A DNA stretch of 64,000 nt from Acidobacteriota bacterium (GTDB taxonomy: Bacteria; Acidobacteriota; Vicinamibacteria; Vicinamibacterales; CAVVIG01): assembly GCA_003222395.1 (NCBI GenBank), contig QHWB01000034.1, forward strand, positions 147,645 through 211,644, written 5' to 3'. Each line of letters begins with the position of its first letter. Within the stretch, counting starts at the first letter, position 1. The notes under the pieces are model-generated. The model saw only the letters and a program-made list of their open reading frames with translations. It was not told the origin of the DNA and ran no database searches. Positions 13,794 through 36,287 of this stretch are shown one piece after another. The position numbers and the translations under genes were made by a program.

Positions 13794-14642
13794 ATGGCGA
13801 ACGTGGCGTTTCTCGGAACCGGCATGATGGGCAGCGGGATGGTGGAGGCGATGCTGCGCCGCGGCGAAGCGGTCGCGGTGTGGAACCGCACCGAGTCGAA
13901 GGCGCGCGCGCTCGAACCGCTCGGCGCGAAAGTCGCCGCGTCTCCCGCCGACGCCGTGACCGCCGCGGATCGCGTCCATCTGATGCTCCCCGACGATGCG
14001 GTCGTCGATCGCATTCTGGAGCAGAGTCTTCCGCGCGTCCGGCGCGACGCTGTCGTGATCGATCACTCGACGACCTCGCCGCGCGGCACGAAAGCGCGGA
14101 TCGAGCGTCTGCAGAAGTCTGGCGTCAGCTTCCTGCACGCGCCGGTGTTCATGTCGCCGCAGATGACGCGCGACGCCGTCGGTCTGATGATGGTGTCCGG
14201 GCCGCGGCAGGTCTACGACGCGGTCGGCTCCGTGCTGGAGAAGATGACCGGCGAAGTGTGGTACCTCGGCGAGCGCGGCGATCTGGCCGCGGCGTACAAG
14301 CTGTTCGGCAACTCGATGCTCTTCGTCCTCACCGGCGGCATCGCGGATGTCTTTGCGATGGCGAAGGCGAACGGCATCGAGCCGGCCGACGCGCTCACCG
14401 TCTTCGACAAGTTTCCGGTCGGCAACTTCATCAAGCTGCGAGGCGAGAAGATGGCGCGGCGGGACTTCAGCGCCACTTTCGAGCTGACGATGGCGCGTAA
14501 GGACACGCGCCTGATGCTCGAAGCCGCCGATGGTCAGCCGCTGACCGTACTGCCCGGCATTGCAAAGCGGATGGACGACGCGATCGCGAGCGGGCACGGG
14601 AAGGATGATCTCGGCGCCATCGCCGCCGAGGTGTTGCGATGA
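13794..14642 (+). CDS. NAD(P)-dependent beta-hydroxyacid dehydrogenase (HIBADH / 6-PGDH NAD-binding family)
   Basis: N-terminal Rossmann motif 'VAFLGTGMMGSGM'; length and overall pattern fit the family. Confidence 0.8.
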   Translation: MANVAFLGTGMMGSGMVEAMLRRGEAVAVWNRTESKARALEPLGAKVAASPADAVTAADRVHLMLPDDAVVDRILEQSLPRVRRDAVVIDHSTTSPRGTKARIERLQKSGVSFLHAPVFMSPQMTRDAVGLMMVSGPRQVYDAVGSVLEKMTGEVWYLGERGDLAAAYKLFGNSMLFVLTGGIADVFAMAKANGIEPADALTVFDKFPVGNFIKLRGEKMARRDFSATFELTMARKDTRLMLEAADGQPLTVLPGIAKRMDDAIASGHGKDDLGAIAAEVLR

Positions 14643-16057
14643 GGATGACGGTGCGTGCTCTCGTCGTCGTCTCCGTAGCGCAGGCCTTCGGGCCTGCCTT
14701 TGCGCAACAAAACTCCGACGCGATCGAGAACTTCATCTCCGTCAACGCGGAGGTCATCGCGCTGACGCACGTCCGCGTCATCGACGGCACCGGCGCCGCC
14801 GCGCGCGACGATCAGACGATCATCATTCGCGACGAGGCCATTGCCGCCCTCGGCGATGCGGCGCGCACGCCGCCGCCCGACGGCGCGAAGATTCTCGATC
14901 TGTCCGGCAGGAGCGTGATTCCCGGCCTCGTGATGATGCACGAGCATCTCTACTATCCAACCGGACCCGGCGTGTACGGTCAGCTCGGCGCGAGCTTCTC
15001 GCGTCTGTACCTCGCCGGCGGCGTGACGACGATGAGGACCGGCGGCAACATGCACGGCATCTTCGACATCAATCTCGCCCGCCGTATCGCCGATTGGGAG
15101 TTGCCCGGTCCGGACATCGACGCGACGGCGCCGTACGTCAACGGTCCGAACACCTTCCTGCAGCTGCACGCGGTGAAGACTCCACAAGAGGCGCGATCGC
15201 ACGTCGCGTACTGGGCCGGACAGGGTGCGACGTCGGTCAAGGCGTACATGCAGATCTCGCGCGCCGCGCTGAAGGCGGCCATCGACGAAGCGCATGCCCG
15301 CCGCATGAAGGTGACCGGGCATCTCTGCTCCGTGACGTACGCGGAAGCGGCGGATCTCGGCATCGACAACCTCGAGCACGGCTTCATGCCGGCCACCGAT
15401 TTCGTCGCCGACAAACAACCCGACGTCTGCCCGGGCCAGGCGCGCGGCCAGCAGGCGATCGCCGCGCTCGACGACAACGCCGCGCCGTTCAAGGCGCTGG
15501 TGAAGAAGCTCGTCGATCGCCGCGTCGCGCTGACGTCGACGCTCACCGTGTTCGAGACGTTCACTGCGGGCCGGCCGATCCCGCCGGGTCTCGAGGTGCT
15601 GACGCCGACGCTCAAAGACAGTTTTCTGCGCTCGCGGGAGCGCGCGGCCGCCAACCCGCAGTCGGCGTACGCCAAGCTCTTCCCGAAGAACCTGACGCTC
15701 GAGCGCGCGTTCGCGCGCGCAGGCGGACTGCTGACGGCCGGCACCGATCCGACGGGATTTGGCGGCGTCGTTCCCGGTTTTTCGAATCAGCGCCAGGTGG
15801 AGCTGCTCGTCGAAGAAGGCTTCACGCCGCTCGAGGCGATCTCGATCGCGACGCTCAACGGTGCGAAGTATCTGGGCCGCGACGCGCGCATCGGCACAAT
15901 CGCCGCCGGCAAGCAGGCCGATCTGGTCGTCATCAACGGCAATCCGGCGCGGACGATTGCCGACATCCGACGCGTCGAAACGGTTTTCAAGAAGGGCGTC
16001 GGATTCGATCCCGCGAAGCTGATCGCCTCCGTATCGGGACAGGTCGGGATCTGGTAG
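14639..16057 (+). CDS. Secreted amidohydrolase-superfamily metallohydrolase
   Basis: Signal peptide 'MRMTVRALVVVSVAQAFGPAFAQ'. 'VIPGLVMMHEHL' is the H-x-H metal motif region. ATGA overlap with the upstream gene. Confidence 0.75.
   Translation: MRMTVRALVVVSVAQAFGPAFAQQNSDAIENFISVNAEVIALTHVRVIDGTGAAARDDQTIIIRDEAIAALGDAARTPPPDGAKILDLSGRSVIPGLVMMHEHLYYPTGPGVYGQLGASFSRLYLAGGVTTMRTGGNMHGIFDINLARRIADWELPGPDIDATAPYVNGPNTFLQLHAVKTPQEARSHVAYWAGQGATSVKAYMQISRAALKAAIDEAHARRMKVTGHLCSVTYAEAADLGIDNLEHGFMPATDFVADKQPDVCPGQARGQQAIAALDDNAAPFKALVKKLVDRRVALTSTLTVFETFTAGRPIPPGLEVLTPTLKDSFLRSRERAAANPQSAYAKLFPKNLTLERAFARAGGLLTAGTDPTGFGGVVPGFSNQRQVELLVEEGFTPLEAISIATLNGAKYLGRDARIGTIAAGKQADLVVINGNPARTIADIRRVETVFKKGVGFDPAKLIASVSGQVGIW
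14675..14697. repeat. Member (reverse orientation) of the small hairpin family, inside signal-peptide coding sequence
   Basis: 'gtagcgcaggccttcgggcctgc' is the reverse complement of the GCAGGCC-CGAA-GGCCTGC-GCTAC form. Confidence 0.4.
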
Positions 16058-16060
16058 GGC

Positions 16061-16414
16061 TCAGCGCCGGCTGCGGGAGGCGGTTCTCATCAGCCGCTCG
16101 ACGCGTGGTACTCGCGCCAGTGGCGCAGGCTGACCGACAGAAGCGAAGACTCGTGCGATCGCCGCCGGCGCGGTGACGCGCACCCACTGCTCGATGACCG
16201 GCGCCGCCGCGCGCCACACGAGCGCGCCCGGCACGAACAGCATCGCGTAGACGAGAAGGATGGCTGCCGCCCGCGGAAGCGGACGCTGACGCCGGCCGAC
16301 GTTGATGCGACGCCGGATCGCGTCGACGGCTGGCGCGAGCAGGTAGGAAGAAGAACACCGCCAGGAGTCCGAGAATGCCGGCGGCCCCGAGGAACCGGAT
16401 AATCCTGCGCCCAT
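16061..16414 (-). pseudogene. Possible remnant of the N-terminus of an AI-2E (PerM) family transporter
   Basis: 'YLLAPAVDAIRRRINVGRRQRPLPRAAAILLVYAMLFVPGALVWRAAAPVIEQW' resembles the TM1-loop-TM2 region of AI-2E transporters. A hydrophobic segment just upstream ('RFLGAAGILGLLAVFFFL') lies in another frame, which points to a frameshift. Only ~117 codons precede the stop. Confidence 0.3.
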
Positions 16415-16421
16415 GCGAACG

Positions 16422-17249
16422 TTAAAACGTCGGGGGCGTGTTGATCCAGAGCAGGACCGCTTCGTCGCTCGACGGATTGAACCAGCGGTGACCGACGGTG
16501 CTCTCGAACCAGAAGCTGTCGCCCTGCTGCAGCGTGTGGCACTGGAGCTCGTCGAGCCAGATCTCGAGCGTGCCCGACATCATGTAGATGAATTCTTCGC
16601 CCTGATGCGAGTACGAGCCGTCGCTGCCCGCGCCGGGCGCGACGCGAAAGAGCTGACTCTCGAGCTGCCGCGCGCCGACCGAGAGCAGCTCGATGCGGAC
16701 GCCCGACTGCGTCTGAATCGCGCGCCGATCGCGCGGCCGCACCAGATGGTTCGACTGCTTCGGCACGTCGAAGAAATCGAGCACCGTCGACCCGTACGTC
16801 GAGGCGAGGCGCTGCAGCGTCGCGACGGAGGGATTGGCGCGCGAGAGCTCGATCGCGCTGAGAAAGCCCGCGGAGATCTTCGATCGCTTCGCGGCCTCGA
16901 CGACGCCGAGACCGGTCTTCTTTCGCAGCCTTCGCAGCTTGGCGCCGAGATCCGTCGGGCGCGGCCCCTGCGCGTTCCGCGCCGACGCGGTCTTGCCGAG
17001 CACCTGCTTGATGCCGGGCAGGTTCAGCAGCTTGACGTCGCGGAGGTACTTGATTCGCTTGAGGACCTCGAGCAGCTCCGGGCTGTAGAGCCGATACCGG
17101 CCGTTGCTGCGCGCCGGCGCGACCAGCCCGACGCTCTCCCACAGCCGCAGCGTCGACGGACTGACGCCGAGGATCCGCGCGGTTTCACCGACCGTCAGCA
17201 GTCCGATCCGCGATGCGCGTCCGCGCCTGGCCTTCGTGCGACGTCTCAT
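16422..17249 (-). CDS. Transcriptional regulator with MerR-type HTH, XRE-type HTH and a cupin sensor domain (the last two thirds are PuuR-like)
   Basis: 'LTVGETARILGVSPSTLRLWESVGLVAPARSNGRYRLYS' (MerR HTH); 'LGAKLRRLRKKTGLGVVEAAKRSKISAGFLSAIELSRANPSVATLQRLA' (XRE HTH); C-terminal cupin 'HQGEEFIYMMSGTLEIW…GDSFWFESTVGHRW'. I prefer the start at ATG 17249 because it leaves the divergent promoter free. Confidence 0.8.
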   Translation of the reverse strand: MRRRTKARRGRASRIGLLTVGETARILGVSPSTLRLWESVGLVAPARSNGRYRLYSPELLEVLKRIKYLRDVKLLNLPGIKQVLGKTASARNAQGPRPTDLGAKLRRLRKKTGLGVVEAAKRSKISAGFLSAIELSRANPSVATLQRLASTYGSTVLDFFDVPKQSNHLVRPRDRRAIQTQSGVRIELLSVGARQLESQLFRVAPGAGSDGSYSHQGEEFIYMMSGTLEIWLDELQCHTLQQGDSFWFESTVGHRWFNPSSDEAVLLWINTPPTF

Positions 17250-17289
17250 GAACGCGCCGCGATCATAAGGCAATCGCCGCGCCGATGTG

Positions 17290-17318
17290 TTGACAGCCAT
17301 ACATCTTTCTAGTAGAAC
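17290..17318 (+). promoter_or_regulatory. Sigma70-like promoter with a conserved spacer motif (P2), possibly giving a leaderless mRNA
   Basis: TTGACA (17290-17295), a 17-nt spacer 'gccatacatctttctag', then TAGAAC (17313-17318). The ATG at 17327 is only ~8 nt downstream and has no SD. The motif recurs at 30640-30668 and 30572-30601. Confidence 0.45.
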
Positions 17319-17326
17319 CGCGGGCC

Positions 17327-18676
17327 ATGGCCGCCATCAGCATCCGCACGGAGATTCCCGGGCCAAGGTCGCGCGCGCTCATGCGGCGCCGCGCCGCGGC
17401 GGTCCCGAGGGGCGTCGCGCACGCCGCGCCGGTGTTCGCGGCGTCCGCCGACGGCGTCCGCGTGACCGACGTCGACGGCAACGTGTACCTCGACTTCGCC
17501 GGCGGCATCGGCGTGATGAACGTCGGCCACTCGGCGCCGTCGGTGGTGGCCGCCGTCGGCCGGCAGGCCGAACGCCTGACGCATGTCTGCTTCGCCGTGC
17601 AACCGTACGAATCGTACGTGGCCCTGGCCGAACGCCTCGCGGCGCTGACGCCCGGAAGGTTCGCGAAGAAAACGCTGCTCGTCAACAGCGGCGCTGAAGC
17701 GATCGAGAACGCGATCAAGATCGCACGTCATGCGACTGGCCGTCCGGGCGTGCTGTGCTTCGAAGACGCGTTCCACGGGCGCACGCTGCTCGCGCTGTCG
17801 CTCACGAGCAGAGTCGCGCCGTACAAACTCGGGTTCGGTCCGTTCGTGCCGGACGTGGTGCGCGTGCCGTACGCCTATTGCTATCGCTGCGCGTATCACA
17901 CCGAGCATCCGGACTGCGCTGTGGCGTGCGTCGACGCCATCGAGCGGCAGTTCCAGCGCCACGTCGATCCGCGGACGATTGCCGCGGTCGTCGTCGAACC
18001 GGTACTCGGAGAAGGCGGCTTCGTCGTGCCGCCGATCGGCTATCTCTCGAAGCTTGCCGCGCTCTGCCGCCGCCACGGCATCGTCCTCATCGTCGATGAA
18101 GTGCAGACAGGTTTCGGCCGCACCGGTCGCATGTTCGCGTGCGAGCACGACGGCGTCGAGCCCGACCTGCTGGTCGCGGCCAAATCGCTGGCCGCCGGCC
18201 TGCCGCTGGCCGCCGTCATCGGCCGTGCGGAGCTGATGGATTCGCCTGTCGAGGGTGGGCTTGGCGGCACGTACGGCGGCAACCCGATCGCCTGCGCGGC
18301 CGCGCACGCCGTGCTCGATCTCTTCGAGTCGGGAGACCTGCTGCGACGCAGCGAGGCGATTGGCGCGCGCATCGAGGCGCGCGCGCGCGAATGGGCGCGG
18401 AGCTGTCCGCTGGTCGGCGACGTGCGGCGGCGCGGCGCGATGGTCGGCGTCGAGCTCGTCACGAACAGGGAGACGCGCGAGCCCGCCAAGCGCGAGACCG
18501 AAGAAATCATCCGGCTCGCGTGCGAGCGCGGCGTGCTCATGATCGCCGCCGGCACGTTCGGAAACGTCATCCGCTTCCTGACGCCGCTCACGATCACGAA
18601 CGACGAGCTCGACGAGGGGCTCGAGGTGCTGTCCGAGTCGGTCCGGGCGGTGACCTCGCAGCTCGCGGCGCGCTGA
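17327..18676 (+). CDS. gabT: Class-III PLP aminotransferase, 4-aminobutyrate aminotransferase-like
   Basis: 449 aa. 'IRTEIPGPRS', 'DFAGGIGVMNVGHS', 'LVNSGAEAIENAIKIAR', 'IVDEVQTGFGRTG' and the PLP-lysine region 'LLVAAKSLAAG' are typical of GabT. Confidence 0.8.
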   Translation: MAAISIRTEIPGPRSRALMRRRAAAVPRGVAHAAPVFAASADGVRVTDVDGNVYLDFAGGIGVMNVGHSAPSVVAAVGRQAERLTHVCFAVQPYESYVALAERLAALTPGRFAKKTLLVNSGAEAIENAIKIARHATGRPGVLCFEDAFHGRTLLALSLTSRVAPYKLGFGPFVPDVVRVPYAYCYRCAYHTEHPDCAVACVDAIERQFQRHVDPRTIAAVVVEPVLGEGGFVVPPIGYLSKLAALCRRHGIVLIVDEVQTGFGRTGRMFACEHDGVEPDLLVAAKSLAAGLPLAAVIGRAELMDSPVEGGLGGTYGGNPIACAAAHAVLDLFESGDLLRRSEAIGARIEARAREWARSCPLVGDVRRRGAMVGVELVTNRETREPAKRETEEIIRLACERGVLMIAAGTFGNVIRFLTPLTITNDELDEGLEVLSESVRAVTSQLAAR

Positions 18677-18707
18677 ACGCGCGCGCCAGACCTCCGCTCC
18701 CTTCGTC

Positions 18708-20732
18708 ATGTGGTACTTCCGCAAGCTCCCGGACGGCCTGACGGTTCTGCAGACGCGCCCCGAGCACGCGCAGCAGCTCGAGGAGCTGCAGCGCACCTGC
18801 TTTCCAACGCTTGCGGATGCCGAGCGCTTCAAGGCGGCCCACTATCTGAAACACATCGATCTGTTTCCCGACGGACAGTTCGTCGTCCTCGACGGCGACC
18901 GCGTTGTCGGCGCGACGACGACGCTTCGACTGCATTTCGATTTCGACCACGTCGACCACACGTTCGCGGATCTGATTCAGGGAGGCTGGCTCTCGTCTCA
19001 CGAGCCCGGTGGCGACTGGCTGTACGGCGCCGACGTCGGCATCGATCCTTCTTATCGCCGCCGCGGTCTGGCGACGGCGCTCTACGCGGCGCGGCAGGAG
19101 ACCGTCTGGCGATTGCGGCTGAGAGGGCAGGTCACCGCCGGCATGATTCGCGACTATGGCGCCGTGAAGGATCGCATGTCCCCGGACGACTACTACAGAG
19201 GCGTCGTCGAGCGCCGACTCACCGACTCCACGCTCTCGATGCAGCTCGGCGTCGGCTTCGAGCCGCGAGCGCTGCTCGCCAACTACCTCAACGATCCGGT
19301 GTGCGACAACTACAGCGTGCTGCTCGTCCTCCCGGCCGAGCAAGAGGTGCGAGGCGCATCGCGGAAACACGCCATGTCCTACATCCGTTTGAACACGGAG
19401 ATTCCCGGATCACGCGCGCGCGATCTCATCGCCCGTCGAACGGCCGCCGCTCCGGCGGGTCTCGGCCGCGCGACCGACGTGGCCGTCGAGCGCGCCGATG
19501 GCGGCCTCGTCTTCGATGTGGACGGAAACACGCTCATCGATCTGGCCGGCGGCATCGGCATGCTGGCCGTCGGTCACTCGCCTGCAGAAGTGGTGAAGGC
19601 GATTCAGCAGCAGGCGGCGAAGTACATCCATCCCTGCGCGCTGGTCGCGACTTACGAGCCGTACGTGCAGCTCGCGGAGCTGCTGAACGAGATCACACCG
19701 GGCGCCTTCAGCAAGAAAACGATCCTGGCCAACAGCGGCGCCGAAGCGGTCGAGAACGCGGTCAAGCTCGCGCGCAAGTACACGGGCCGTCCTTCGGTGA
19801 TTTGCTTCGAGGGCGGCTATCACGGGCGGACGCTGCTGACGCTGAGCCTGACGAGCAAGTACAGCTTGTTCAAGAGCGGGTTCGGTCCGTTCGCGCCCGA
19901 GATCGTGCGCCTGCCCGTTCCGCACGTGTACCGCACGCCGCCGGGAATGACCGAGGACGCATACGTCGATTTCGGCATCCGCCAACTCGAGCACGCGTTC
20001 GTCGCGCAGGTGGATCCGAAAGCCGTCGCCGCCGTCATCATCGAGCCGGTCCAGGGCGAGGCGGGCTTCATTCCGGTGCCGCCGCGGTTTCTCGCGCGCA
20101 TCCGCGAGCTGTGCACCGAACACGGCATCGTGATGATCGCCGACGAAGTCCAATGCGGCATGGGGCGCACCGGCCGCCTATTCGCGATCGAACACTACGA
20201 CCTCGTTCCGGATCTCATCACGATCGCGAAGTCGCTGGGCGCAGGGATGCCAATCGCCGCGGCGACCGGTCGCGCCGAGATCATGGACGCGGCGCATCTC
20301 GGCGGCCTCGGCAGCACGTACGGCGGCAGCCCGATCGCCTGCGCGGCGGCGATCGAGGCGATCGGCATCATCCGCCGGCCCGAGTTCCTCGCGCACGCGC
20401 GCGCGCTCGGCGACGTGATGCGCGAGGTGATGAACGCGTGGACGATGAAATACCCGATCGTCGGAGACGTGCGCGGCCTCGGCCCGATGATGGTGGCCGA
20501 GTTCGTCGCCGACCGCAGATCGAAGAAGCCGGCGACGCCGGACGAAACGCTTCAGATCGTGCGCGAAGCAGTCGCCCGCGGCGTCATCCTGATGCGCGCG
20601 GGACTCTACAGCAACTGCGTCCGTTTCCTTCCGCCGCTGGTGATGCCCGAAGACATGCTGCGCGAAGGCCTCGAGGTCGTCGGCGGCGCCATCGAGGCCG
20701 TGTCGCTCCGCCACGCGGGCACGCCGGCATGA
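18708..20732 (+). CDS. Fusion protein: N-terminal GNAT N-acetyltransferase domain (~225 aa) plus a class-III aminotransferase
   Basis: One uninterrupted 674-codon frame. The GNAT acetyl-CoA motif 'YRRRGLATALYAAR' lies in the first third. From 'MSYIRLNTEIPGSRARDL' onward it parallels the upstream aminotransferase ('IADEVQCGMGRTG', 'LITIAKSLGAG'). Confidence 0.8.
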   Translation: MWYFRKLPDGLTVLQTRPEHAQQLEELQRTCFPTLADAERFKAAHYLKHIDLFPDGQFVVLDGDRVVGATTTLRLHFDFDHVDHTFADLIQGGWLSSHEPGGDWLYGADVGIDPSYRRRGLATALYAARQETVWRLRLRGQVTAGMIRDYGAVKDRMSPDDYYRGVVERRLTDSTLSMQLGVGFEPRALLANYLNDPVCDNYSVLLVLPAEQEVRGASRKHAMSYIRLNTEIPGSRARDLIARRTAAAPAGLGRATDVAVERADGGLVFDVDGNTLIDLAGGIGMLAVGHSPAEVVKAIQQQAAKYIHPCALVATYEPYVQLAELLNEITPGAFSKKTILANSGAEAVENAVKLARKYTGRPSVICFEGGYHGRTLLTLSLTSKYSLFKSGFGPFAPEIVRLPVPHVYRTPPGMTEDAYVDFGIRQLEHAFVAQVDPKAVAAVIIEPVQGEAGFIPVPPRFLARIRELCTEHGIVMIADEVQCGMGRTGRLFAIEHYDLVPDLITIAKSLGAGMPIAAATGRAEIMDAAHLGGLGSTYGGSPIACAAAIEAIGIIRRPEFLAHARALGDVMREVMNAWTMKYPIVGDVRGLGPMMVAEFVADRRSKKPATPDETLQIVREAVARGVILMRAGLYSNCVRFLPPLVMPEDMLREGLEVVGGAIEAVSLRHAGTPA

Positions 20733-22318
20733 GCGCTCAGCCCGCGGCCGATCTCGTTCTGTACAACGGCAACGTCATCACCCTCGGCCAGCCCGCGGTC
20801 GCGCGCGCGGTCGCCGTGCGCGGGGGCCGCATCGTCTGCGTCGGGCGCGCTGAAGACGTGCTGAACGGGGCCGGCGCGAAGGCGCACCGGATCGATCTCG
20901 GCGGCCGAACGCTCATCCCGGGGCTGAACGACGCGCACGCGCACATCTGGAAGATCGGCCAGCTGCTGACGACGATGCTCGATTTGCGGCGCGTCGGCAG
21001 CATGGAGGAGTTGGTGTCGCGCGTCGCGGCGCACGGTTGCGCGCTGCCGCCGGGCGCGTGGCTGCTCGGGCGCGGCTACAACGAGGCGGCGATGCGCGAA
21101 CGGCGGATGCCGACGCGCGCCGATCTCGATCGCGCCGACCCGAATCGACCAATCGTCCTCACACGCACCTGCGGTCATATCTGCGCCCTCAACAGCGCGG
21201 CGATGAGCCGCGCCCGCATCGACGCGGCCACGGACACGCCGGAGGGCGGCGTGATCGATCGCGACGATCGCGGCGAGCCGACCGGCGTGCTGCGCGAAAC
21301 GGCGATAGGCCTGATCAACCGCGCGATGCCCGCGCCGGAACGCGGCGAGTACGAGCGAATGATCGTCGCCGCGCTTGACCATCAGCTGTCGCTCGGCATC
21401 ACCTCGTCCGCGGACTGCGGCGTGCGGCCGCAGCTCGTCGACGTGTATCGCGCGATGGACGCGAAAGGCGCGCTGCCATCGCGAGTGAACGTCATGCCGC
21501 TCCGGCGCGTCGACGGCGTAGCGTCTGCGGTGCCGCTGCCGGAGCGATTCGTCTCCGATCGGCTGCGCGTCGACACCGTGAAGTTCCTTGCGGACGGCGG
21601 GCTGAGCGGCGCGACGGCGGCGCTGAGCATGCCGTACCGCCACACCCATTCCAGCGGCGTGCTGCGATTCGCGAACGGCGAGCTCCACGAGCTGTGCGCG
21701 GAGTCGCATCGCGCGGGCTGGCGGATTGCGACGCACGCAATCGGCGACGTCGCAATCGATCAGGTGCTCGACGTGTACGAACGGCTCGGCACCCATCCGC
21801 GCCGGATCGCCCACCGCATCGAGCACTTCGGGCTGCCCGATGCGCGGCAGCTCACGCGTGCGAAGGCGCTCGGCGTGATCGCCGCGCCGCAAGCCATCTT
21901 CATCCACGAACTCGGGCGGAATTTTCGCCAGTACCTGCCCGACGCGCTGCTCCCGCGCGCCTATCCGATTCGCGCGATGATCGATGCCGGCATCCCGGTG
22001 GCGCTGTCGTCGGACGCGCCGGTCGTCGAAGACGACAACCCGCTCGCCGGAATGATGGCGGCGGTGACGCGCATCGACGGCGACGGAGAGCTGATCGCGC
22101 CGTCGCAGGCGATTACGACGCGCGAAGCGCTGTACGGATACACGATGGGCGGCGCCATCGCGACCGGAGACGAAGCCAACCGCGGCAGCATCGACGTCGG
22201 GAAGTGGGCCGACTTTGCGGTGCTTTCCGGCAACCCGCTCGCCGAGTCACCCGGAGCGCTCACGCGCCTGACGGTCGAGATGTCACTGGTCGGCGGCCGC
22301 GTGGTCTTCGAACGATGA
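20729..22318 (+). CDS. Amidohydrolase-3 family (YtcJ-like) metallohydrolase
   Basis: Real start is ATG 20729 (ATGA overlap with the previous stop). '[13 protein letters not shown]', '[11 protein letters not shown]', 'IATHAIGD'. Only the last 529 codons of ORF 18710..22318 are coding. Confidence 0.8.
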
Positions 22319-23679
22319 GCGTGCAGCAGCCGCTCGACATCCCGCGGACGCTCGGCCGGCGGGACCTCGTCCTGCTGAAGATCGTCGCGATCGTCAACAT
22401 TAATAATGTCCCTCCCGTTGCCGTCTACGGCTGGGCATCCCTGGGACTGTGGATGCTCGCGTTCATCACCTTCTTCGTGCCGGAAGCGATTGCCGTGCTG
22501 ACGTTGTCGCGCCGCTATCCGGGAGAGGGCGGGATCTACCTCTGGACGCGCAAAGAGTTCGGCGAAGCGCACGGGTTCCTGTCGGGCTGGTGCTATTGGA
22601 CCAACAATCTGTTTTACGTGCCGGTGCTGCTCGTCTACATGACGGGCGTCTTTGCGTTTGCCGGCGGCGAGGCGCGGGCGGCCGCTCTCGTCAATCAGCG
22701 ATCGTTCGTCGCGGTCGTGTCGTTCGCGTGGCTCGCCGTCATCGCCGTGGCGAACATCCGCGGCCTCGCGGTCGGCAAATGGATTCAGAACGTTGGCGGC
22801 TTCAGCGCGTTTCTGAGCGTCGGACTCGTGCTCGCGGCCGCGGCGGTGATCGGATTCAGCGGCGCGGGCGCCGAGGCGCCTGCGATCGCGCACGCGACGT
22901 GGGAGATGACGACGAGCTTCGCCGTCATGTGCAACGCGCTGGTCGGCATCGAGCTGGCGTCGACGATGGGCGACGAGATCCGCGATCCGGAACATGACCT
23001 GAAGCCTGCCATCGCGACGGCGGGCGTCGTGTCGATCGCCTCGTACCTTCTCGTCACGGGCGCGGTTCTGACGCTCGTGCCGGTCGAGCGCGTCGGCGTG
23101 ATACAAGGCGTGATGCAGGCTGTCGCGGCCGGCGCCGACGCCGCGCGGCAGCGATGGATGATCGCGCCGCTCGCGATCGTGATGGGTCTCGCGACGGGGG
23201 GCGCTGCTTCGGCCTGGTTCGCCGGATCGTCGCGCATCCCGTTCGTCGCCGGCCTGACGAGTGCGCTGCCGCCGGCGCTCGGACGCATCCACCCGCGCTG
23301 GCACTCGCCGCACATCGCCTTGACGGCGTGCGCGCTGATGGCTGGCCTGTTCACGGCGTTTTCGCTGACGGGATCGACCGTCAACGAGGCGTATCAGGTG
23401 CTGTTGAAGGCGGCGGTGGTCATTCAGCTGATTCCGTTCACTTATCTCTTCCTTGCGCTTGCCAGACTCGCCGGGGTGGGCATCTTGTCGCGCGCCGCCG
23501 GCTTCGTCGGCCTCGGCGCCACCATCGTCGGCCTCGGCGCCGCGTTCCTGCCGACCGCGGACGTATCGAGCGTCGTCCTGTTCGAGACGAAAATGATCCT
23601 CGGCGTCATCGGACCGACCGCGATCGGATGGTTTCTGTTCAAGCGGGCACAGCGCGATCAGGCTGAGGTTCCAGCATGA
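22315..23679 (+). CDS. APC-superfamily amino acid/polyamine permease
   Basis: ATG 22315 (ATGA overlap). About 12 hydrophobic segments. The N-terminal 'RTLGRRDLVLLKIVAIVNINN' is typical of APC permeases. Confidence 0.85.
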   Translation: MSVQQPLDIPRTLGRRDLVLLKIVAIVNINNVPPVAVYGWASLGLWMLAFITFFVPEAIAVLTLSRRYPGEGGIYLWTRKEFGEAHGFLSGWCYWTNNLFYVPVLLVYMTGVFAFAGGEARAAALVNQRSFVAVVSFAWLAVIAVANIRGLAVGKWIQNVGGFSAFLSVGLVLAAAAVIGFSGAGAEAPAIAHATWEMTTSFAVMCNALVGIELASTMGDEIRDPEHDLKPAIATAGVVSIASYLLVTGAVLTLVPVERVGVIQGVMQAVAAGADAARQRWMIAPLAIVMGLATGGAASAWFAGSSRIPFVAGLTSALPPALGRIHPRWHSPHIALTACALMAGLFTAFSLTGSTVNEAYQVLLKAAVVIQLIPFTYLFLALARLAGVGILSRAAGFVGLGATIVGLGAAFLPTADVSSVVLFETKMILGVIGPTAIGWFLFKRAQRDQAEVPA

Positions 23680-25643
23680 CGAGCGACAAAGATCTCGGAA
23701 TGCATCGGGCGATCACGCGCCGCGATTTTCTCAACGGGGTCGCGATCGGCGTCGGCGGCGCAATCGCCGGCCGCGCGCTGCCGGAGATTTCCTGGCTCGC
23801 CGCGACGGGGATCACTCAGGATGCTCCGGGCTACTATCCGCCGGCGCTGACCGGCATGCGCGGCAGTCACGACGGCTCGTTCGAGGTCTCGCACGCGCTG
23901 CGCGACGGCCGGTTCCGACCGACCGGACAATCTGTTGCGACGGGTGAAACCTACGATCTCGTCGTCGCCGGCGGCGGCATCAGCGGCCTGTCGGCGGCGT
24001 ACTTCTATCGCGCGCGGGTCCCGTCCGCGCGAATCCTGATTCTCGACAACCACGACGACTTCGGCGGACACGCGAAGCGCAATGAATTTCGTCCCGGCGG
24101 CCGGTTGTGGATCGCCAACGGCGGCACCGCGGGCATCGAGTCGCCGTTTCCGTACAGCAAGGAAGCGCACGAACTGATGGCCGCGCTCGGCATCGATCCG
24201 GTCGCGCTCTCCGCGGAAGCGGGTCGCGCTGCCGATCGATCCGTCTTTCAGGGACTGCAGGCTGCGACGTTCTTCGATCGCGAGACGTTCGGCGTCGATC
24301 GGCTCGTGGTCGGCACGCCTGGCGGCGGCCGCGGCCGGGGTCGCGGCGCCGCACCGGGAGAGACGTGGGAAGCGTTTCTCGCGAAGACGCCGCTTTCGTC
24401 CGAGGCGCAGCGCGACATCGCGCGGCTCGAGACCGCGGCGGTGGACTACATGCCCGACCTCTCGAACGACGAGAAGAAAGATCGTCTGTCGAGAATGAGC
24501 TACAAGGATTTCCTGCTGAACGTCGTGAAGGTGCACCCCGACGTGATTCCGTTCTACCAGGTGCGGACGCACGGGTTGTATGGAATCGGCATCGATGCCG
24601 TCGGCGCGCTCGAGTGCTGGGCCTACCACTATCCCGGGTTCGAGGGGATGAGGCTCGATCCGAAAGCGACCGGCAGAATGAGCTTCACCGCGCGCGGCGA
24701 TGCGACGCCGAAGCCGGCGTACAACTTTCATTTTCCGGACGGCAACGCGTCGATCGCGCGGCTGCTCGTGCGCGCGCTGATTCCGTCGGCGCTGCCGGGG
24801 CACGCGGCGCAGGACAGCGTGCTCGCGAAGGTCGATTACAGCACGCTCGATCGGCCGGAGACGCCGGTTCGCATTCGATTGAACAGCACGGTCGTGCGCG
24901 TGAAGCACGTCGGGTCGCCGGCGTCGGCGAGCGAAGTCGACGTGGAGTACGGCCGCGACAGGAAGGCCTATACGGTTCGCGCCAAACGGGTCGTGCTCGC
25001 CTGCTGGAACGGCATGATCCCGTATCTCTGTCCGGAGCTTCCGGACAAGCAGAAAGAGGCGCTGAAGTACGGCGTGAAGGTGCCGCTGGTTTACACGAGC
25101 GTCTCGCTGCGGAACTGGACCGCGTTCCACGAGCTGGGCATCAACGGCGCCGCCACGCCGGGCATGTATCACACCGGCGTGCGCCTCGAGGTGCCGACCG
25201 TCATCGGCGGCTACGATCCGACGCCGAAGTCGCCGGACGATCCGATCCTCGTCCGCATGACGCGGACGCCGTGCAAGCCGGGGTTGCCGGCCCGCGATCA
25301 GCACCGGGCAGGACACGTCGATCTGCTCACGACGACGTTCCAGACCTTCGAGCGCAGGATTCGCGATCAGCTCGCGCGCGTGCTGAAGGACGGCGGGTTC
25401 GATCCGGCGCGCGACATCGACGCGATCACCGTCAACCGCTGGCCGCACGGCTACGCGTACGAATACAACCCGCTGTGGGACGCCGACTTTCCGTCCGGCC
25501 AGGCGCCGTGCGAGATCGGCCGCAAACCGTTCGGGCGCATCGCGATTGCGAACTCTGACGCGGCAGCTGCGGCGTACACCGATCAGGCGATGGATCAGGC
25601 GTATCGCGCGGTGAACGAGCTGATGGGCGTGAAGAGAACGTAA
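23676..25643 (+). CDS. Tat-exported FAD/NAD(P)-binding amine oxidoreductase (spermidine dehydrogenase SpdH-like)
   Basis: Twin-arginine motif 'ITRRDFLNGV'; dinucleotide fold 'YDLVVAGGGISGLSAAYF'; 'LDNHDDFGGHAKRNEF'. ATGA overlap with the permease gene. The SpdH-like assignment is from memory of that family. Confidence 0.65.
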   Translation: MTSDKDLGMHRAITRRDFLNGVAIGVGGAIAGRALPEISWLAATGITQDAPGYYPPALTGMRGSHDGSFEVSHALRDGRFRPTGQSVATGETYDLVVAGGGISGLSAAYFYRARVPSARILILDNHDDFGGHAKRNEFRPGGRLWIANGGTAGIESPFPYSKEAHELMAALGIDPVALSAEAGRAADRSVFQGLQAATFFDRETFGVDRLVVGTPGGGRGRGRGAAPGETWEAFLAKTPLSSEAQRDIARLETAAVDYMPDLSNDEKKDRLSRMSYKDFLLNVVKVHPDVIPFYQVRTHGLYGIGIDAVGALECWAYHYPGFEGMRLDPKATGRMSFTARGDATPKPAYNFHFPDGNASIARLLVRALIPSALPGHAAQDSVLAKVDYSTLDRPETPVRIRLNSTVVRVKHVGSPASASEVDVEYGRDRKAYTVRAKRVVLACWNGMIPYLCPELPDKQKEALKYGVKVPLVYTSVSLRNWTAFHELGINGAATPGMYHTGVRLEVPTVIGGYDPTPKSPDDPILVRMTRTPCKPGLPARDQHRAGHVDLLTTTFQTFERRIRDQLARVLKDGGFDPARDIDAITVNRWPHGYAYEYNPLWDADFPSGQAPCEIGRKPFGRIAIANSDAAAAAYTDQAMDQAYRAVNELMGVKRT

Positions 25644-25730
25644 AGCGCGTTGCCTGAATCGGCCCGAACGATTTTGGTGCGTTCGTGTCTCGCCGCCTGG
25701 TTGGAAGGCATGCTCGCGCTGCACGAGCGA

Positions 25731-27767
25731 TTATTTATCTGGCACGCCTCCGCTCGATGATGTCTGCTTCGCGTCTGAGAGCGTCAGCGCGATGAGCTCC
25801 GCCGGATGATCCTTCGCGCCGATCGGGACGACGATGAACTGCTTGCCTTTGTGCATGTAGGTCATCGGCGCGCCGGTCGTGCCGGACGGCAGCTCCATTT
25901 CCCACACGACCTTACCCGTCGCCTTGTCGTACGCGCGGAACTTCTTTCCCCACCCCCACGAAACCTGCGGCGTGCCGATGACGGCGTCGCTGCCTTCGCC
26001 GATGAACAGCAGCGTCTTCGTGACGAGCGGCGCCGGGCGGTTCGGGACGCCGAGCGGCGGAAGATGCAAATCCTTCAGCAGCGGATGCTCGCGCGGGCCG
26101 TCGCCGTTGGCGACCATCCACACTTGTTCGCCCGAGTTCAGGTCGAACGCGGTGATGCGGCCATATGGCGGTTTCACGATCGGCAATCCCTTGACCTGCG
26201 GTCCGAGTCCTTGAACGAAATCGGGCGCGTTGTTCTGCTGCGGATTGCCGGAAGGTCCCGCGTAGTCCATCGTCGCGCCTGCATTTCCCTTCGTGCTGGC
26301 GACGGCGCGGATGCCGGGAAGCGTGAGCGACACCGCGTAGTACATCCCGGTCTCGGGATCGAACGCGCCGGTGTGCCAGTTGCCGGCGCCCCACGCGCCC
26401 GGAATCGTGAAGGTGCCTTTCTTGCCGCCGGCGTCAGTGCTGCGGATCGAAGGCGGCGTATAGAGCGGACCGAGCACGAACGCTTTCGCGTAGTCGAGCG
26501 CCGCCTCGCGCAGCTCCGGCGTGAAATCGATCAGATCGTCTTCGCTGATGCCCTGCCGATCGAAGGGCGGCGGCTTGGTGGGAAACGGCTGCGTCGGCGA
26601 CGCCTGCTCGCCCGGCACGCTCGACGCCGGCACCGGCCGCTCGACGATCGGCCAGACCGGATCGCCGGTGACGCGATTGAGCACGTACAGGAATCCATTC
26701 TTGTTCGGCTGCATCACCGCCTTGATCTTCTTTCCGTTGACGGTGATGTCGCCGAGGATCGCCGGGCCGACGTTGTCGTACTCCCACAGATCGTGATGAA
26801 TCATCTGGAAGTGCCACACTCGTCGTCCGGTCTTCGCGTCGAGCGCGACGAGCGCGTCGGAGTACAAGTTCGCGCCAGGACGCCATCCGCCGTACGCCGC
26901 GGCAGTCGGTGCGGTGAGAGGAATGTAGGCGTATCCGAGCTGCTCGTCGGCCGACATCGGGTTCCACGCGCCGATGTCGCCGGCCACCTTCCACGACTCG
27001 TTGCCCCAGCTGTCGCTCCCGAACTCGGCGCCCTGCGGCACGACGTGGAACGTCCACAGCAGCTTGCCGCTGCGCGCGTCGAACCCCCGGACGTTCTCTG
27101 GCGCCGCCTCCTTCTTGTCGCCGCCGTCGCCCGCGCCCGCCGTGTTGCCGGTCACGACGACGACGCTGCCGACGACGAGCGGTCCGGTGCTGTCGTTGAA
27201 CTTCGCGGCGAGCGGCTGGTTCTCCTCGAAGTGCAGGCTCGCGCGCCCGTGATCGCCGAAATCGGCGTACGGCTTTCCGGTCTTCGCGTTCAGCGCATAC
27301 AGATATTCGCCGCGAATCACGAAGATCCGGTGATCGGATCCGCCCCGCCAGTAATCGACGCCGCGGGTACTCTGGCCCTGGAGCTCCTCCTGCGTCCGCG
27401 CGAACGGCTCCTGCTGCCACACCGTCTCGCCCGATCCGGCGTCGAACGCGCTGACGAACCCGTGGACGTCCTGCGTGTAGAGCGTCCCGTCGACCACGAT
27501 CGGCGTGGATCGCAGATACGCGTTGACGCGCAGCTCCGGAAACGCTTCCTTGAAGCTGGTGTTCGTCGCCGGCCGGCGCCACGCGATGCGCAGGTTCTTC
27601 ACGTTGTCGCGCGTGATTTGATCGGCGGGCGAGTAGCGCGTGAACGCCTTGTCGCCGCCGAAGTATCGCCACTCGATCGTGCGGCCCTGCGAATGAACGG
27701 CGAGCGTCGCGGCGCCGAGAAGGCCGACGATCAGCTGCGCGCGAATCGGTAGCGTGAGGCGAACCAC
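25731..27767 (-). CDS. Secreted PQQ-dependent dehydrogenase (quinoprotein glucose/alcohol dehydrogenase-type beta-propeller)
   Basis: N-terminus 'EWRYFGGDKAFTRYSPADQITRDNVKNLRIAWRR' is the classic start of quinoprotein dehydrogenases. Repeated W-containing propeller motifs and a signal peptide are present. Confidence 0.8.
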   Translation of the reverse strand: MVRLTLPIRAQLIVGLLGAATLAVHSQGRTIEWRYFGGDKAFTRYSPADQITRDNVKNLRIAWRRPATNTSFKEAFPELRVNAYLRSTPIVVDGTLYTQDVHGFVSAFDAGSGETVWQQEPFARTQEELQGQSTRGVDYWRGGSDHRIFVIRGEYLYALNAKTGKPYADFGDHGRASLHFEENQPLAAKFNDSTGPLVVGSVVVVTGNTAGAGDGGDKKEAAPENVRGFDARSGKLLWTFHVVPQGAEFGSDSWGNESWKVAGDIGAWNPMSADEQLGYAYIPLTAPTAAAYGGWRPGANLYSDALVALDAKTGRRVWHFQMIHHDLWEYDNVGPAILGDITVNGKKIKAVMQPNKNGFLYVLNRVTGDPVWPIVERPVPASSVPGEQASPTQPFPTKPPPFDRQGISEDDLIDFTPELREAALDYAKAFVLGPLYTPPSIRSTDAGGKKGTFTIPGAWGAGNWHTGAFDPETGMYYAVSLTLPGIRAVASTKGNAGATMDYAGPSGNPQQNNAPDFVQGLGPQVKGLPIVKPPYGRITAFDLNSGEQVWMVANGDGPREHPLLKDLHLPPLGVPNRPAPLVTKTLLFIGEGSDAVIGTPQVSWGWGKKFRAYDKATGKVVWEMELPSGTTGAPMTYMHKGKQFIVVPIGAKDHPAELIALTLSDAKQTSSSGGVPDK

Positions 27768-30571: not shown

Positions 30572-30601
30572 CATGTAACAGGAGAAATGCAAGGCTGTCA
30601 A
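30572..30601 (-). promoter_or_regulatory. Promoter-like motif P3 (minus strand) related to P1/P2
   Basis: The minus strand reads TTGACAGCCTTGCATTTCTCCTGTTACATG. The first 9 nt are identical to P2 and most of the spacer is similar. An SD 'GGAGAGGAG' precedes ATG 30547. Confidence 0.35.
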
Positions 30602-30639: not shown

Positions 30640-30668
30640 TTGACAACCATACATGTTTAATGTAGAAG
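30640..30668 (+). promoter_or_regulatory. Promoter-like motif P1 related to P2
   Basis: TTGACA (30640-30645), 17-nt spacer 'accatacatgtttaatg', then TAGAAG (30663-30668). The spacer holds the inverted repeat TACAT-N5-ATGTA. An SD GGAGG precedes ATG 30694. Confidence 0.45.
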
Positions 30669-34247: not shown

Positions 34248-36287
34248 ATGAATAGGGAAGACCGCCGGCTCGGCATGGATCGGTCGATCACGCGGCGCGA
34301 TTTCCTCAACGGCGTCGGCCTGACGGTCGTCGGGTCGATCCTCGCGCCGGAGCTCGCCCGCGCGGCGCAGACGGAACTGCACCCCAGCGCGCAAAATCCG
34401 CGCGCTTTGGACCCCGCATTCGCGCCCGAGCGCGCCGCCGATTACTACCCGCCGACGCGCACCGGCATGCGCGGCAGCCATCCGGGATCGTTCGAAGTCG
34501 CGCATCAGCTGCGCGACGCGCGGCAGTGGAACCTTTCTGGCGCGATCGAGACCGATGAATCGTACGACCTGGTGATCGTCGGCGGAGGGCTGAGCGGTTT
34601 GTCGGCCGCGTACTACTTCATCCGCGATGCGGGCCGAAACGCGAAGGTGCTCGTCCTCGACAATCACGACGATTTCGGCGGCCATGCGAAGCGCAACGAG
34701 TTTCATTACAACGGCCGCATGCTCGCGCTGAACGGCGGCACGCTGAACATCGAGTCGTGGAATCGCTACAACGAGCACGCGCGCTCGCTCATCACCGAAA
34801 TCGGCATCGACATCGATCGGTTTCTCGCGTCGAACCAGAAGAACCGCACGCTGTATGCGTCGCTGGGGTTGACCGGACAGGCGCTGTTCTTCGACAAGGA
34901 GACGTGGGGCGCCGACAAGCTCGTCGTTCGACACAGCGCAGGAGGAGGCGGACGAGGCGGCGGCTACAAGGGCGACGATGTGTCGCAGATGCCGCTGTCG
35001 CCCCAGGCGCAGAAGGACCTGCTGCGCCTCTATGGCGGCGCACATGCCGACTACATGCCGGGGCTGACGTCGGCGGAAAAGAAAGTCCGGCTCGCGAAGA
35101 TGAGTTATCAGGACTTTCTCCTGAATCTGGTCAAAGTCGACAAGCAGGTCGTCTGGTTCTTCCACAATCAAGGCGCCGGCAATTTCTGCGTCGGCGTTGA
35201 TTGCTATCCGGCGCTGTTCGGGTGGCAGGACGGACTGCCGGGATTCTCGGGGATGGATCTCGAGGCGAGCCCGAAAGGACTTCTCGCCGATCTGCCCGGC
35301 GGCCATCACGGACGGCAGATCGGACCGGGCGGCGGACCGACGGTGCATTTTCCGGACGGCAACGCGACAATCGCGCGGCTCCTCGCCCGATGGCTGATTC
35401 CGGGCGCGGTGCCGGGCACCTCGATGGAAGACGTCGGCGCCGCGCGCGTCGACTACGCCGCGCTCGATCGATCGGGGCAGACGGTCCGCGTTCGGTTGAA
35501 CAGCACGGTGGTGCACGTCGCGCACGACGGCGACGCGGCCCGCGCGAAGGAAGTCGTCACCAGCTACGTGCGCGGCGGCAGGACATATCAGGTGCGGTCG
35601 CGCGCCGTGGTGATGGCGTGCTGGAACTCGTTCATTCCCTACCTCGTGCCCGATCTGCCGGCGGCGCAGAAAGACGCGCTCGCCTTCGGCATCAAGGGGC
35701 CGCTCGTCTACACCAGCGTCGCGGTGAAGAACTGGACGGCGTTCCAGAAGCTCGGCGTCGCCTCGATCAACGCGCCGACGATGTACCACACGGGCGTGTC
35801 GCTTTCGGAGGCAGTCAGCCTCGGCGATCTGCATCACCCGCAGACCCCGGAAGAACCCGTCGTCCTGCACATGACGCGCTACCCGATGTCGCCCGGTAAA
35901 CCGCGGAAAGAGCAGCACCGAATGGGACGCGCCGACCTGCTGAGCACGACCTTCGAGACCTTCGAGCGCAAGATTCGCGATCAGCTGGCGCGAAATCTCG
36001 GCGGCGGAGGGTTCGACCCCGCGCGCGACATCATCGCGATTGCCGTCAACCGCTGGCCGCATGGTTACGCGTACACGTACAACCCGCTGTACGACCCGCT
36101 CGAGTGGGTCTACACCTCATCGAACGATCGGCCGTGCGTCAAGGCGCGGCAGCCTTTCGGCCTCATCACGATCGCGAACTCGGATGCCGCGGCGAGCCCG
36201 CATACCGACGCGGCGATGCTCGAGGCGCACCGCGCGGTTCAGGAAGTGCTGCAGCGTCGGGCGATGCCGCTGCTCACATCACCGTGA
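34248..36287 (+). CDS. Tat-exported FAD/NAD(P)-binding amine oxidoreductase, paralogue of 23676..25643
   Basis: 'SITRRDFLNGV' twin-arginine motif; 'YDLVIVGGGLSGLSAAYYF'; 'LDNHDDFGGHAKRNEF'. Collinear with the first copy along its length. Confidence 0.65.
   Translation: MNREDRRLGMDRSITRRDFLNGVGLTVVGSILAPELARAAQTELHPSAQNPRALDPAFAPERAADYYPPTRTGMRGSHPGSFEVAHQLRDARQWNLSGAIETDESYDLVIVGGGLSGLSAAYYFIRDAGRNAKVLVLDNHDDFGGHAKRNEFHYNGRMLALNGGTLNIESWNRYNEHARSLITEIGIDIDRFLASNQKNRTLYASLGLTGQALFFDKETWGADKLVVRHSAGGGGRGGGYKGDDVSQMPLSPQAQKDLLRLYGGAHADYMPGLTSAEKKVRLAKMSYQDFLLNLVKVDKQVVWFFHNQGAGNFCVGVDCYPALFGWQDGLPGFSGMDLEASPKGLLADLPGGHHGRQIGPGGGPTVHFPDGNATIARLLARWLIPGAVPGTSMEDVGAARVDYAALDRSGQTVRVRLNSTVVHVAHDGDAARAKEVVTSYVRGGRTYQVRSRAVVMACWNSFIPYLVPDLPAAQKDALAFGIKGPLVYTSVAVKNWTAFQKLGVASINAPTMYHTGVSLSEAVSLGDLHHPQTPEEPVVLHMTRYPMSPGKPRKEQHRMGRADLLSTTFETFERKIRDQLARNLGGGGFDPARDIIAIAVNRWPHGYAYTYNPLYDPLEWVYTSSNDRPCVKARQPFGLITIANSDAAASPHTDAAMLEAHRAVQEVLQRRAMPLLTSP

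Follow-up and report, generated by a model that had tools for sequence, protein, structure and literature searches.

The 64,000-nucleotide stretch of Vicinamibacterales DNA analysed here (contig QHWB01000034.1; hereafter the window) carries five co-directional genes at positions 17327–25643 of its forward strand. In order, they encode a 4-aminobutyrate (GABA) transaminase GabT, a fusion of a GNAT domain with a second class-III transaminase, a YtcJ-like amidohydrolase, a permease of the APC superfamily and a homologue of the spermidine dehydrogenase SpdH. Three ATGA overlaps (20729–20732, 22315–22318 and 23676–23679) and a single gap of 31 nt between the TGA of gabT (18674–18676) and the ATG of the fusion gene (18708) join the five genes, and re-reading of the sequence found each of these junctions exactly where an initial annotation, made from the sequence alone, had placed it. 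All five frames have a coding-type composition (GC content of 0.84–0.88 at third codon positions versus 0.46–0.51 at second positions, in a genome of 68% GC), and all five proteins have strong family matches. The unit consists of these five genes in full, since a divergent regulator gene (16422–17249, minus strand) borders it upstream and a convergent gene for a pyrroloquinoline quinone (PQQ) dehydrogenase (25731–27767, minus strand) downstream. The five genes form a genuine operon, which very probably serves the catabolism of polyamines or diamines and most likely breaks down spermidine-type polyamines. This DNA stretch was found in soil metagenomes from more than ten studies.

Proteins encoded by the operon

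The last gene of the operon (23676–25643, plus strand) encodes a protein of 655 amino acids (aa) that is homologous over nearly its entire length to the flavin adenine dinucleotide (FAD) plus heme b enzyme SpdH of Pseudomonas aeruginosa (structures 7D9F–7D9J), with a phmmer E value of 2.4e-147 and residues 12–649 aligned to residues 2–619 of 7D9I. The initial annotation had recognized a flavoprotein exported by the twin-arginine translocation (Tat) system, which agrees with the twin-arginine motif RRDFLNG at the N-terminus and the FAD-binding GxGxxG motif DLVVAGGGISGLSAA, and the protein can now be further identified as an SpdH homologue. The surface heme b of the P. aeruginosa enzyme has His54 and His562 as axial ligands (PMC12564564); both histidines are kept here, the former corresponding to H73 (FEVSH) and the latter to the histidine of NRWPHGY. 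These features make the prediction of a Tat-exported FAD/heme-b spermidine dehydrogenase well supported. Spermidine dehydrogenases produce 1,3-diaminopropane and 4-aminobutanal (PMC9397018). Given the homology of the fifth gene to SpdH, spermidine or spermine is the most likely substrate of the operon; the amine or polyamine catabolism originally proposed for the operon holds and can be narrowed. The ATG at 23676 is preceded at a distance of 8 nt by a Shine–Dalgarno-like GAGG; if translation began instead at the second ATG (23700), the last overlap would give way to a gap of 20 nt. There are three SpdH genes in this 7.7-Mb genome, and the two further paralogues, both 52% identical to the operon protein, are located at approximately 34257–36251 (plus strand), 8.6 kb downstream of the operon, and on another contig (C15:37054–38907).

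The first gene, gabT (17327–18676, plus strand), encodes a canonical 4-aminobutyrate (omega-amino acid):2-oxoglutarate transaminase of 449 aa. Its score of 566.4 bits on the TIGR00700 model exceeds the cut-off of 506.65, confirming the earlier GabT-like label; the protein is 48% identical to Escherichia coli GabT and is the best GabT match in the genome. The second class-III, GabT-like transaminase forms residues 226–674 of the fusion protein (19383–20732, plus strand; 395 bits on Aminotran_3) and is 49% identical to the product of gene 1. It scores 498.3 bits on TIGR00700, just under the same cut-off, and 303 bits on the argD model, for which the cut-off is 410. Both transaminases are 41–48% identical to GabT/PuuE. 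The fusion transaminase keeps every catalytic residue of E. coli GabT that was checked (R141, E211, K268, R398 and others), although this check does not discriminate between substrates, as these residues are required in any 2-oxoglutarate-dependent enzyme, irrespective of the amine used.

The two transaminases are separated by phylogeny. In a maximum-likelihood tree (quick search, midpoint root, branch support from the Shimodaira–Hasegawa-like approximate likelihood ratio test, SH-aLRT), all 71 GNAT-linked transaminases form one clade with 99% SH-aLRT support and a few fixed differences from GabT, and a supported branch separates them from the product of gene 1, its orthologues, E. coli GabT and PuuE. 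Transaminases encoded separately from the GNAT domain occupy dispersed positions close to the base, and a clade of 48 members consists essentially of fused proteins. The two enzymes of the operon accordingly represent two different subfamilies, both of the GabT type. The PatA/SpuC and EctB/DoeD types, which the initial annotation had listed as candidates for a subfamily phylogeny, were rejected for both transaminases; the scores fall far below the cut-offs of those models and are highest on GabT models.

The N-terminal part of the fusion protein (residues 1–225 of 674; 18708–19382, plus strand) is a GNAT domain scoring 28.8 bits on Pfam Acetyltransf_1, above the cut-off of 20.7. Its AlphaFold model has a predicted local distance difference test score (pLDDT) of 97, and the top Foldseek matches of this model all have the GNAT fold, so that the domain model, Pfam and Foldseek jointly back the GNAT–transaminase fusion that had been read from the sequence. 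The domain carries the R-x-x-G-x-A motif for binding of coenzyme A (CoA) as R-R-R-G-L-A at residues 117–122; G56, H98, Y106, Y162 and D173 are invariant in its family. It is present in a single copy in the genome. No NCBIfam model was found for it, only generic GNAT clusters were matched in the ESM Atlas, and a sequence search of the PDB returned GphF alone (E 0.006). Members of this GNAT subfamily are mostly stand-alone proteins of 200–230 aa; seven are fused to C–N hydrolases, with the two domains in both orders, and one (P0243) to a flavin amine oxidase.

The amidohydrolase gene (20729–22318, plus strand) encodes a YtcJ-like binuclear-metal enzyme of 529 aa without a signal peptide, for which we propose the function of a deacetylase. 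The assignment to the YtcJ-like amidohydrolases stands, with a Pfam Amidohydro_3 match of 316 bits and intact metal ligands (H70, H72, K285, H336, H366 and D429), which are invariant in 42 orthologues. The AlphaFold model has a pLDDT of 94.8, and the nearest structures in both the sequence search and Foldseek, 3icj and 3igh (26–28% identity), are uncharacterised. The characterised members of the PF07969/YtcJ-like family are N-acyl amide hydrolases and include the epsilon-lysine acylase of Streptomyces, which acts on a terminal amine (PMC10699109), and metal-dependent bile salt hydrolases. The fourth gene (22315–23679, plus strand) encodes a permease of 454 aa, whose placement in the APC superfamily is upheld by an AA_permease_2 match of 115 bits. 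Beyond this, models of GadC-type and basic amino acid/polyamine antiporters match it only weakly, and it is 22% identical to E. coli PuuP and has no close characterised relative; it is proposed to import the SpdH product or a diamine.

Related loci and regulation of the operon

Relatives of the fusion protein are present in 252 species-level genomes. We compared 80 loci from at least five phyla, on which the window proteins were placed by tblastn and in which, separately, 957 neighbouring open reading frames (ORFs) were subjected to label-free clustering. The two approaches agree, and the five top families among the neighbouring ORFs are the transaminase, the amidohydrolase, an aldehyde dehydrogenase (ALDH), the APC permease and SpdH. 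Across the 80 loci, the GNAT domain and the transaminase are either fused or adjacent: they form one ORF in most Acidobacteriota and are encoded by split, adjacent genes, with a stop codon between them, in at least 15 loci from the Gemmatimonadota, Myxococcota, Armatimonadota and some Acidobacteriota. Internal frameshifts in a few long-read assemblies were taken as assembly errors. The fusion can be read as a Rosetta-stone link suggesting a functional connection between the two enzymes.

In 42 of the 72 loci with enough flanking sequence, the gene immediately downstream of the transaminase encodes an orthologue of the amidohydrolase (52–73% identity). Of 65 loci, 40 have a linked ALDH, and in 33 it occurs together with the amidohydrolase. 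According to the clustering, the APC permease occurs in 30 loci, an SpdH homologue in 24 and a PuuR-like regulator in 13. Among the 56 loci with long flanks, 21, from several phyla, have an SpdH homologue within 10 kb of the cassette; since the 7.7-Mb genome studied here contains only three SpdH genes, the presence of SpdH near about a third of the cassettes represents a strong enrichment. SpdH adjoins the permease in nine loci (L003, L006, L043, L045, L049, L054, L067, L070 and L080). A second, canonical GabT is encoded next to the fusion in 11 loci, which fits the use of two different amine substrates. L006 and L067 have exactly the gene order of the window (divergent regulator, gabT, fusion, amidohydrolase, permease, SpdH), and L003 has it without gabT; its recurrence in other species-level genomes implies that the arrangement is not due to chance. 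In one lineage only among the compared loci, a myxobacterial metagenome-assembled genome of the Polyangiaceae (L052), a PotABCD-like ABC transporter (15199–19152) replaces the APC permease and directly follows a split GNAT/transaminase/amidohydrolase/ALDH cassette; the transporter ATPase scores 405 bits on TIGR01187, above the cut-off of 355.6. A gene for a class-V aminotransferase was observed upstream of the cassette in 12 of the 80 loci (e.g., L023:80–1228 and L029:7049–8359).

The ALDH of the related loci is most similar to succinate-semialdehyde dehydrogenase (SSADH), and the cluster proteins of L040 and L029 score 496 and 507 bits, respectively, on the SSADH model TIGR01780, below its cut-off of 646. 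By comparison, the GabD of the genome under study scores 752 bits there and also passes NF008415, with 834 bits for a cut-off of 828. The cluster ALDH keeps R165 and R283 of GabD (E. coli numbering), and its loop 442–449 is rebuilt. At the place where the ALDH gene stands elsewhere (L029:13612–15054, L040:13607–15058), the amidohydrolase and permease genes directly adjoin each other in the window operon and in L003, L006 and L067.

The divergent gene at 16422–17249 (minus strand) encodes a regulator of 275 aa when read from the ATG at 17249; with a start at another ATG in frame, at 17300, its length would be 292 aa. The initial annotation described a divergent PuuR-like regulator made of an XRE domain and a cupin; the orientation and both domains are correct, but the composition was incomplete, as the protein also has a MerR-type helix-turn-helix (HTH). 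Pfam places MerR_1 at its N-terminus (66 bits), followed by an XRE-type HTH (HTH_31/HTH_3) and Cupin_2 (62 bits). The best NCBIfam match of the C-terminal two-thirds is PuuR (NF007408), with 62 bits, below the cut-off of 211, and the identity to E. coli PuuR is 27% over 178 residues. The regulator gene is single-copy in the genome, and orthologues with 78–87% identity adjoin the cluster in related Vicinamibacterales.

A promoter- or operator-like motif, TTGACA-N4-TACAT-N5-TAGTA-GAAC (TTGACAGCCATACATCTTTCTAGTAGAAC), is located at 17290–17318 (plus strand) and ends 8 nt 5' of the gabT ATG; the gabT mRNA is possibly leaderless. Two further copies, at 30640–30668 on the plus strand (23 of 29 bases identical) and at 30601–30572 on the minus strand (19 of 29), stand before two divergent genes for TonB-dependent transporters. 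In the more general form TTGACA-N4-TRCAT-N5/6-(A/T)RTA, this type of motif also occurs about 45 nt 5' of the fusion gene or gabT in the relatives L001, L006, L040, L055 and L064. The recurrence of the motif supports a putative single promoter of the operon at 17290 and a potential shared regulon. The MerR–XRE–cupin protein probably controls the operon via this conserved TTGACA–TACAT operator. At the other end, a consensus scan identified a terminator-like hairpin at 25711–25729 (plus strand), between the convergent SpdH and PQQ-dehydrogenase genes, with a stem of 6 bp including four GC pairs followed by ATTATTTATC; terminator-like sites are no more numerous in the region than in shuffled sequences, and the hairpin is a candidate only. 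On the far side of the regulator gene and convergent with it, the gene at 14639–16057 (plus strand) encodes a secreted amidohydrolase with a signal peptide and a weak likeness to Caulobacter enzymes of the Xaa-Pro dipeptidase/carboxypeptidase type, and probably lies outside the operon.

A possible acetyl-protected route and its alternatives

In the route that we propose, periplasmic SpdH would cleave spermidine and the APC permease would import the diamine product. Using acetyl-CoA, the GNAT domain would acetylate one amino group, and the fused transaminase would turn the other into an aldehyde, such as 3-acetamidopropanal, thereby avoiding free 3-aminopropanal or a cyclic imine. Free 3-aminopropanal readily yields acrolein. 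An ALDH, which would have to come from elsewhere in this genome, would oxidise the aldehyde to an N-acetyl-omega-amino acid, from which the YtcJ-type amidohydrolase would take off the acetyl group, and GabT together with the GabD of the genome would finish the route. The last assignment, in which the omega-amino acids formed (GABA, beta-alanine) are predicted to be turned into semialdehydes by the product of gene 1, is well supported. We favour this route because a GNAT enzyme, a transaminase, an ALDH and an amidohydrolase are what a sequence of acetylation, transamination, oxidation and deacetylation needs. The fusions of the GNAT subfamily to a flavin amine oxidase and to C–N hydrolases lend further support to acetyl protection, as these are other enzyme types usable in such a route. 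The link to polyamines is independent of the window, since it also follows from the SpdH genes near cassettes, the PotABCD-like transporter of L052 and the PuuR-like regulators. The steps after SpdH are derived from homology and gene neighbourhood, and we give acetyl protection as the specific mechanism a chance approaching one in two.

Several observations weigh against this interpretation. For SpdH homologues at about 50% identity, substrates are not established (PMC12564564). The nearest structures of the GNAT domain are those of GNAT-like decarboxylases (GphF, SxtA and CurA) rather than of polyamine acetyltransferases, and three representatives of the GNAT subfamily (P0225, P0242 and P0270) are fused to phosphoenolpyruvate (PEP) carboxylase, which protection of an amine does not explain. 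The cluster-type ALDH was found neither in the operon nor in the whole 7.7-Mb genome, where its best match (42% identity) is the true GabD on another contig, nor in the loci of the closest relatives L003, L006 and L067; one of the other ALDH paralogues of the genome, seven in number and including a PuuC-like protein at 46% identity, would therefore have to supply this step. The arginines R165 and R283, which we take to be the carboxylate-binding residues of SSADH, would be better suited to an aldehyde with a carboxyl group than to an acetamido-aldehyde. Furthermore, the fusion transaminase and the cluster ALDH both resemble enzymes of the GABA shunt, and a transaminase that scores near the GABA-transaminase cut-off and retains all the checked GabT residues, including R141 and R398, could simply use GABA.

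These points lead to an alternative that we consider unlikely, in which the fused transaminase is a GABA transaminase and the ALDH of the relatives an SSADH. From an N-acyl conjugate taken up by the cell, or from a lactam formed from the SpdH product pyrroline, the amidohydrolase would then liberate GABA or a different omega-amino acid, and the GNAT domain would be an acetyl-CoA-sensing or protein-acetylating regulatory module on anaplerotic enzymes. Such a scheme agrees with the score of the transaminase domain (498 bits) and its conserved GabT residues, with SSADH being the best model for the cluster ALDH, in which both arginines are kept, and with the fusion of the GNAT subfamily to very different enzymes, including PEP carboxylase, an enzyme activated by acetyl-CoA. 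It does not, however, lead one to expect that most GNAT members are stand-alone proteins with invariant catalytic-type residues, as a purely regulatory appendage would hardly be. Moreover, a second enzyme of the GabT type would be redundant in the same operon, the cluster transaminases group in a separate clade with fixed substitutions of its own, and the cluster ALDH falls below the SSADH cut-off and has a rebuilt loop 442–449. A still less probable possibility retains the order of the acetyl-protected steps and changes the substrate: in an acetyl analogue of the arginine succinyltransferase (AST) pathway, ornithine, 2,4-diaminobutyrate or lysine would be N-alpha-acetylated, its omega-amine transaminated, the semialdehyde oxidised by the SSADH-like ALDH and the N-acetyl-dicarboxylic amino acid thus formed deacylated to glutamate or aspartate. 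The acyltransferase, class-III transaminase, ALDH and deacylase would match AstA, AstC, AstD and AstE in logic; N-alpha-acetyl-diaminobutyrate and N-acetylornithine can be viewed as substituted GABA and 5-aminovalerate, which would suit a GabT-like enzyme and an SSADH-like ALDH with its two retained arginines, and amino acids are carried by APC permeases. Yet the linkage to SpdH across phyla, the PotABCD-like transporter and the PuuR-like regulator point to polyamines, the second, canonical GabT would have no role, and the transaminase is nearer to GabT than to ArgD/AstC, as seen from its score on the argD model.

The similarity of the GNAT domain to decarboxylases would gain a direct meaning if the domain were itself a GNAT-like decarboxylase, as in CurA, GphF, SxtA and malonyl-CoA decarboxylase, acting on a malonyl-type thioester after transamination of beta-alanine, a reading that we regard as very improbable. 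GNAT-like decarboxylases have a His/Thr dyad in place of the Tyr general acid of the transferases (PMC3701320). All the best five Foldseek matches of the domain belong to this group, with template modelling (TM) scores of 0.73–0.78 when normalised to the query and 0.81–0.85 with normalisation to GphF and CurA, the targets of a single domain, and the sole sequence match in the PDB belongs to it as well. In a weak HMMER alignment, however, H173 of GphF ('YVHG'), presumably its catalytic histidine by our own reckoning, faces a position that is variable in the GNAT family, and the invariant Y162, a residue of the transferase type, is next to it; for this reason we lean towards a transferase rather than a decarboxylase. 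In addition, the conserved genes of the cluster include neither a CoA ligase nor a CoA transferase, judging from the 957 clustered ORFs. It is equally hard to believe that the five genes belong to unrelated pathways and merely adjoin one another, or that they are transcribed as separate units. The genes around the core differ among relatives, with SpdH, GabT and the permease each occurring in no more than a quarter to a third of the loci, which would agree with such an assembly, but the 4-nt overlaps and the 31-nt gap, the identical order in L006 and L067, and the recurrence of all five families as top neighbours in the label-free clustering speak against it, as does the single promoter-like motif upstream, which in relatives without gabT stands directly before the fusion gene.

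Relation to known pathways and significance

The proposed acetyl-protected route shares features with several known systems. Compared with the SpdH (PA3713) pathway of P. aeruginosa, the operon encodes a near full-length SpdH homologue with the same FAD motif, heme-b histidines and twin-arginine N-terminus; in contrast to that pathway, the gene is translationally coupled here to those for a permease and cytoplasmic enzymes in a single operon. The Puu system of E. coli and the Pau system of P. aeruginosa resemble the operon in their logic of protection, oxidation and deprotection, in the APC importer, the GabT-type final transaminase and the XRE–cupin regulator, as well as in the ALDH present in the relatives. 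However, a ligase of the PuuA type, an oxidase of the PuuB type and a hydrolase of the PuuD type are all missing from the operon; the genome matches to PuuA (26–30% identity) and PuuD (36%) are located outside it, and the PuuB-type match is weak too. In their place, we propose protection by acetylation (GNAT), oxidation by a transaminase and deprotection by a YtcJ-type metallo-amidohydrolase, under a regulator with an additional MerR-type HTH.

In the eukaryotic acetylation route with SSAT and acetylpolyamine oxidase, described for Candida boidinii and mammals, putrescine is degraded via N-acetylputrescine, 4-acetamidobutanal and 4-acetamidobutyrate to GABA. The chemistry proposed for the operon is the same, namely acetylation, oxidation of the free amine, oxidation of the aldehyde, deacetylation and GABA transamination. 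The difference is that the amine would be turned into the aldehyde by a 2-oxoglutarate transaminase fused to the acetyltransferase and not by an oxidase; moreover, the operon enzymes share no homology with SSAT, PAOX or acetylpolyamine amidohydrolases of the HDAC type. The AST pathway (AstA–E) likewise combines acyl-CoA-dependent N-acylation with a class-III transaminase, an ALDH and a deacylase, but it uses a succinyl group and an amino acid substrate, its acyltransferase and AstE belong to unrelated families, and the transaminase of the operon is of the GabT type. The characterised YtcJ-like N-acyl amide hydrolases, such as epsilon-lysine acylase and the bile salt hydrolases, share the Pfam family and the six metal-binding residues with the operon amidohydrolase, and epsilon-lysine acylase deacylates the terminal amine of an amino acid, the type of reaction proposed here, although none of them is a close sequence relative.

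The initial annotation had stated that no textbook pathway matches this gene set, which is consistent with a 2022 review of bacterial routes: it lists gamma-glutamylation, the transaminase route, direct oxidation, spermidine dehydrogenase and acetylation, and states that the fate of the acetylated polyamine (acetylspermidine) is unknown (PMC9397018). Acetylation has thus far been described in bacteria only as a dead end that serves detoxification (PMC9397018). In the literature on bacteria, we found no N-acetyl-diamine transaminase route, no 4-acetamidobutyrate deacetylase and no N-acetyl-beta-alanine deacetylase. In the proposed system, a catabolism of protected diamines would combine new protecting chemistry with new enzyme families and be coupled to SpdH. 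In its general form, an acetyl-CoA-dependent diamine or polyamine route in soil bacteria of at least five phyla, comprising the GNAT enzyme, which would acetylate one amine of 1,3-diaminopropane or putrescine and whose frequent fusion to its partner would serve channelling, a GabT-derived transaminase, an SSADH-derived dehydrogenase and a YtcJ-type amidohydrolase and fed directly by periplasmic SpdH in the Vicinamibacterales, the proposal is tentative, and we hold it to be somewhat more likely wrong than right.

The fused and split forms of the GNAT–transaminase provide a ready pair of proteins for studying substrate channelling, and SpdH-type enzymes are of interest for polyamine biosensors (PMC12564564). 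If correct, the proposed route would represent a fifth type of pathway for bacterial polyamine breakdown and would provide functions for the GNAT subfamily, the sister clade of GabT, the SSADH-like ALDH clade and the clade of YtcJ-type amidohydrolases. Three uncharacterised enzyme subfamilies would thereby gain their first physiological substrates, and the question of what becomes of acetylated polyamines in bacteria would be answered. Soil contains abundant polyamines, compounds rich in nitrogen and carbon, and the Acidobacteriota are among the dominant soil bacteria and are hard to culture; in these organisms, the operon would link periplasmic polyamine oxidation to cytoplasmic metabolism.

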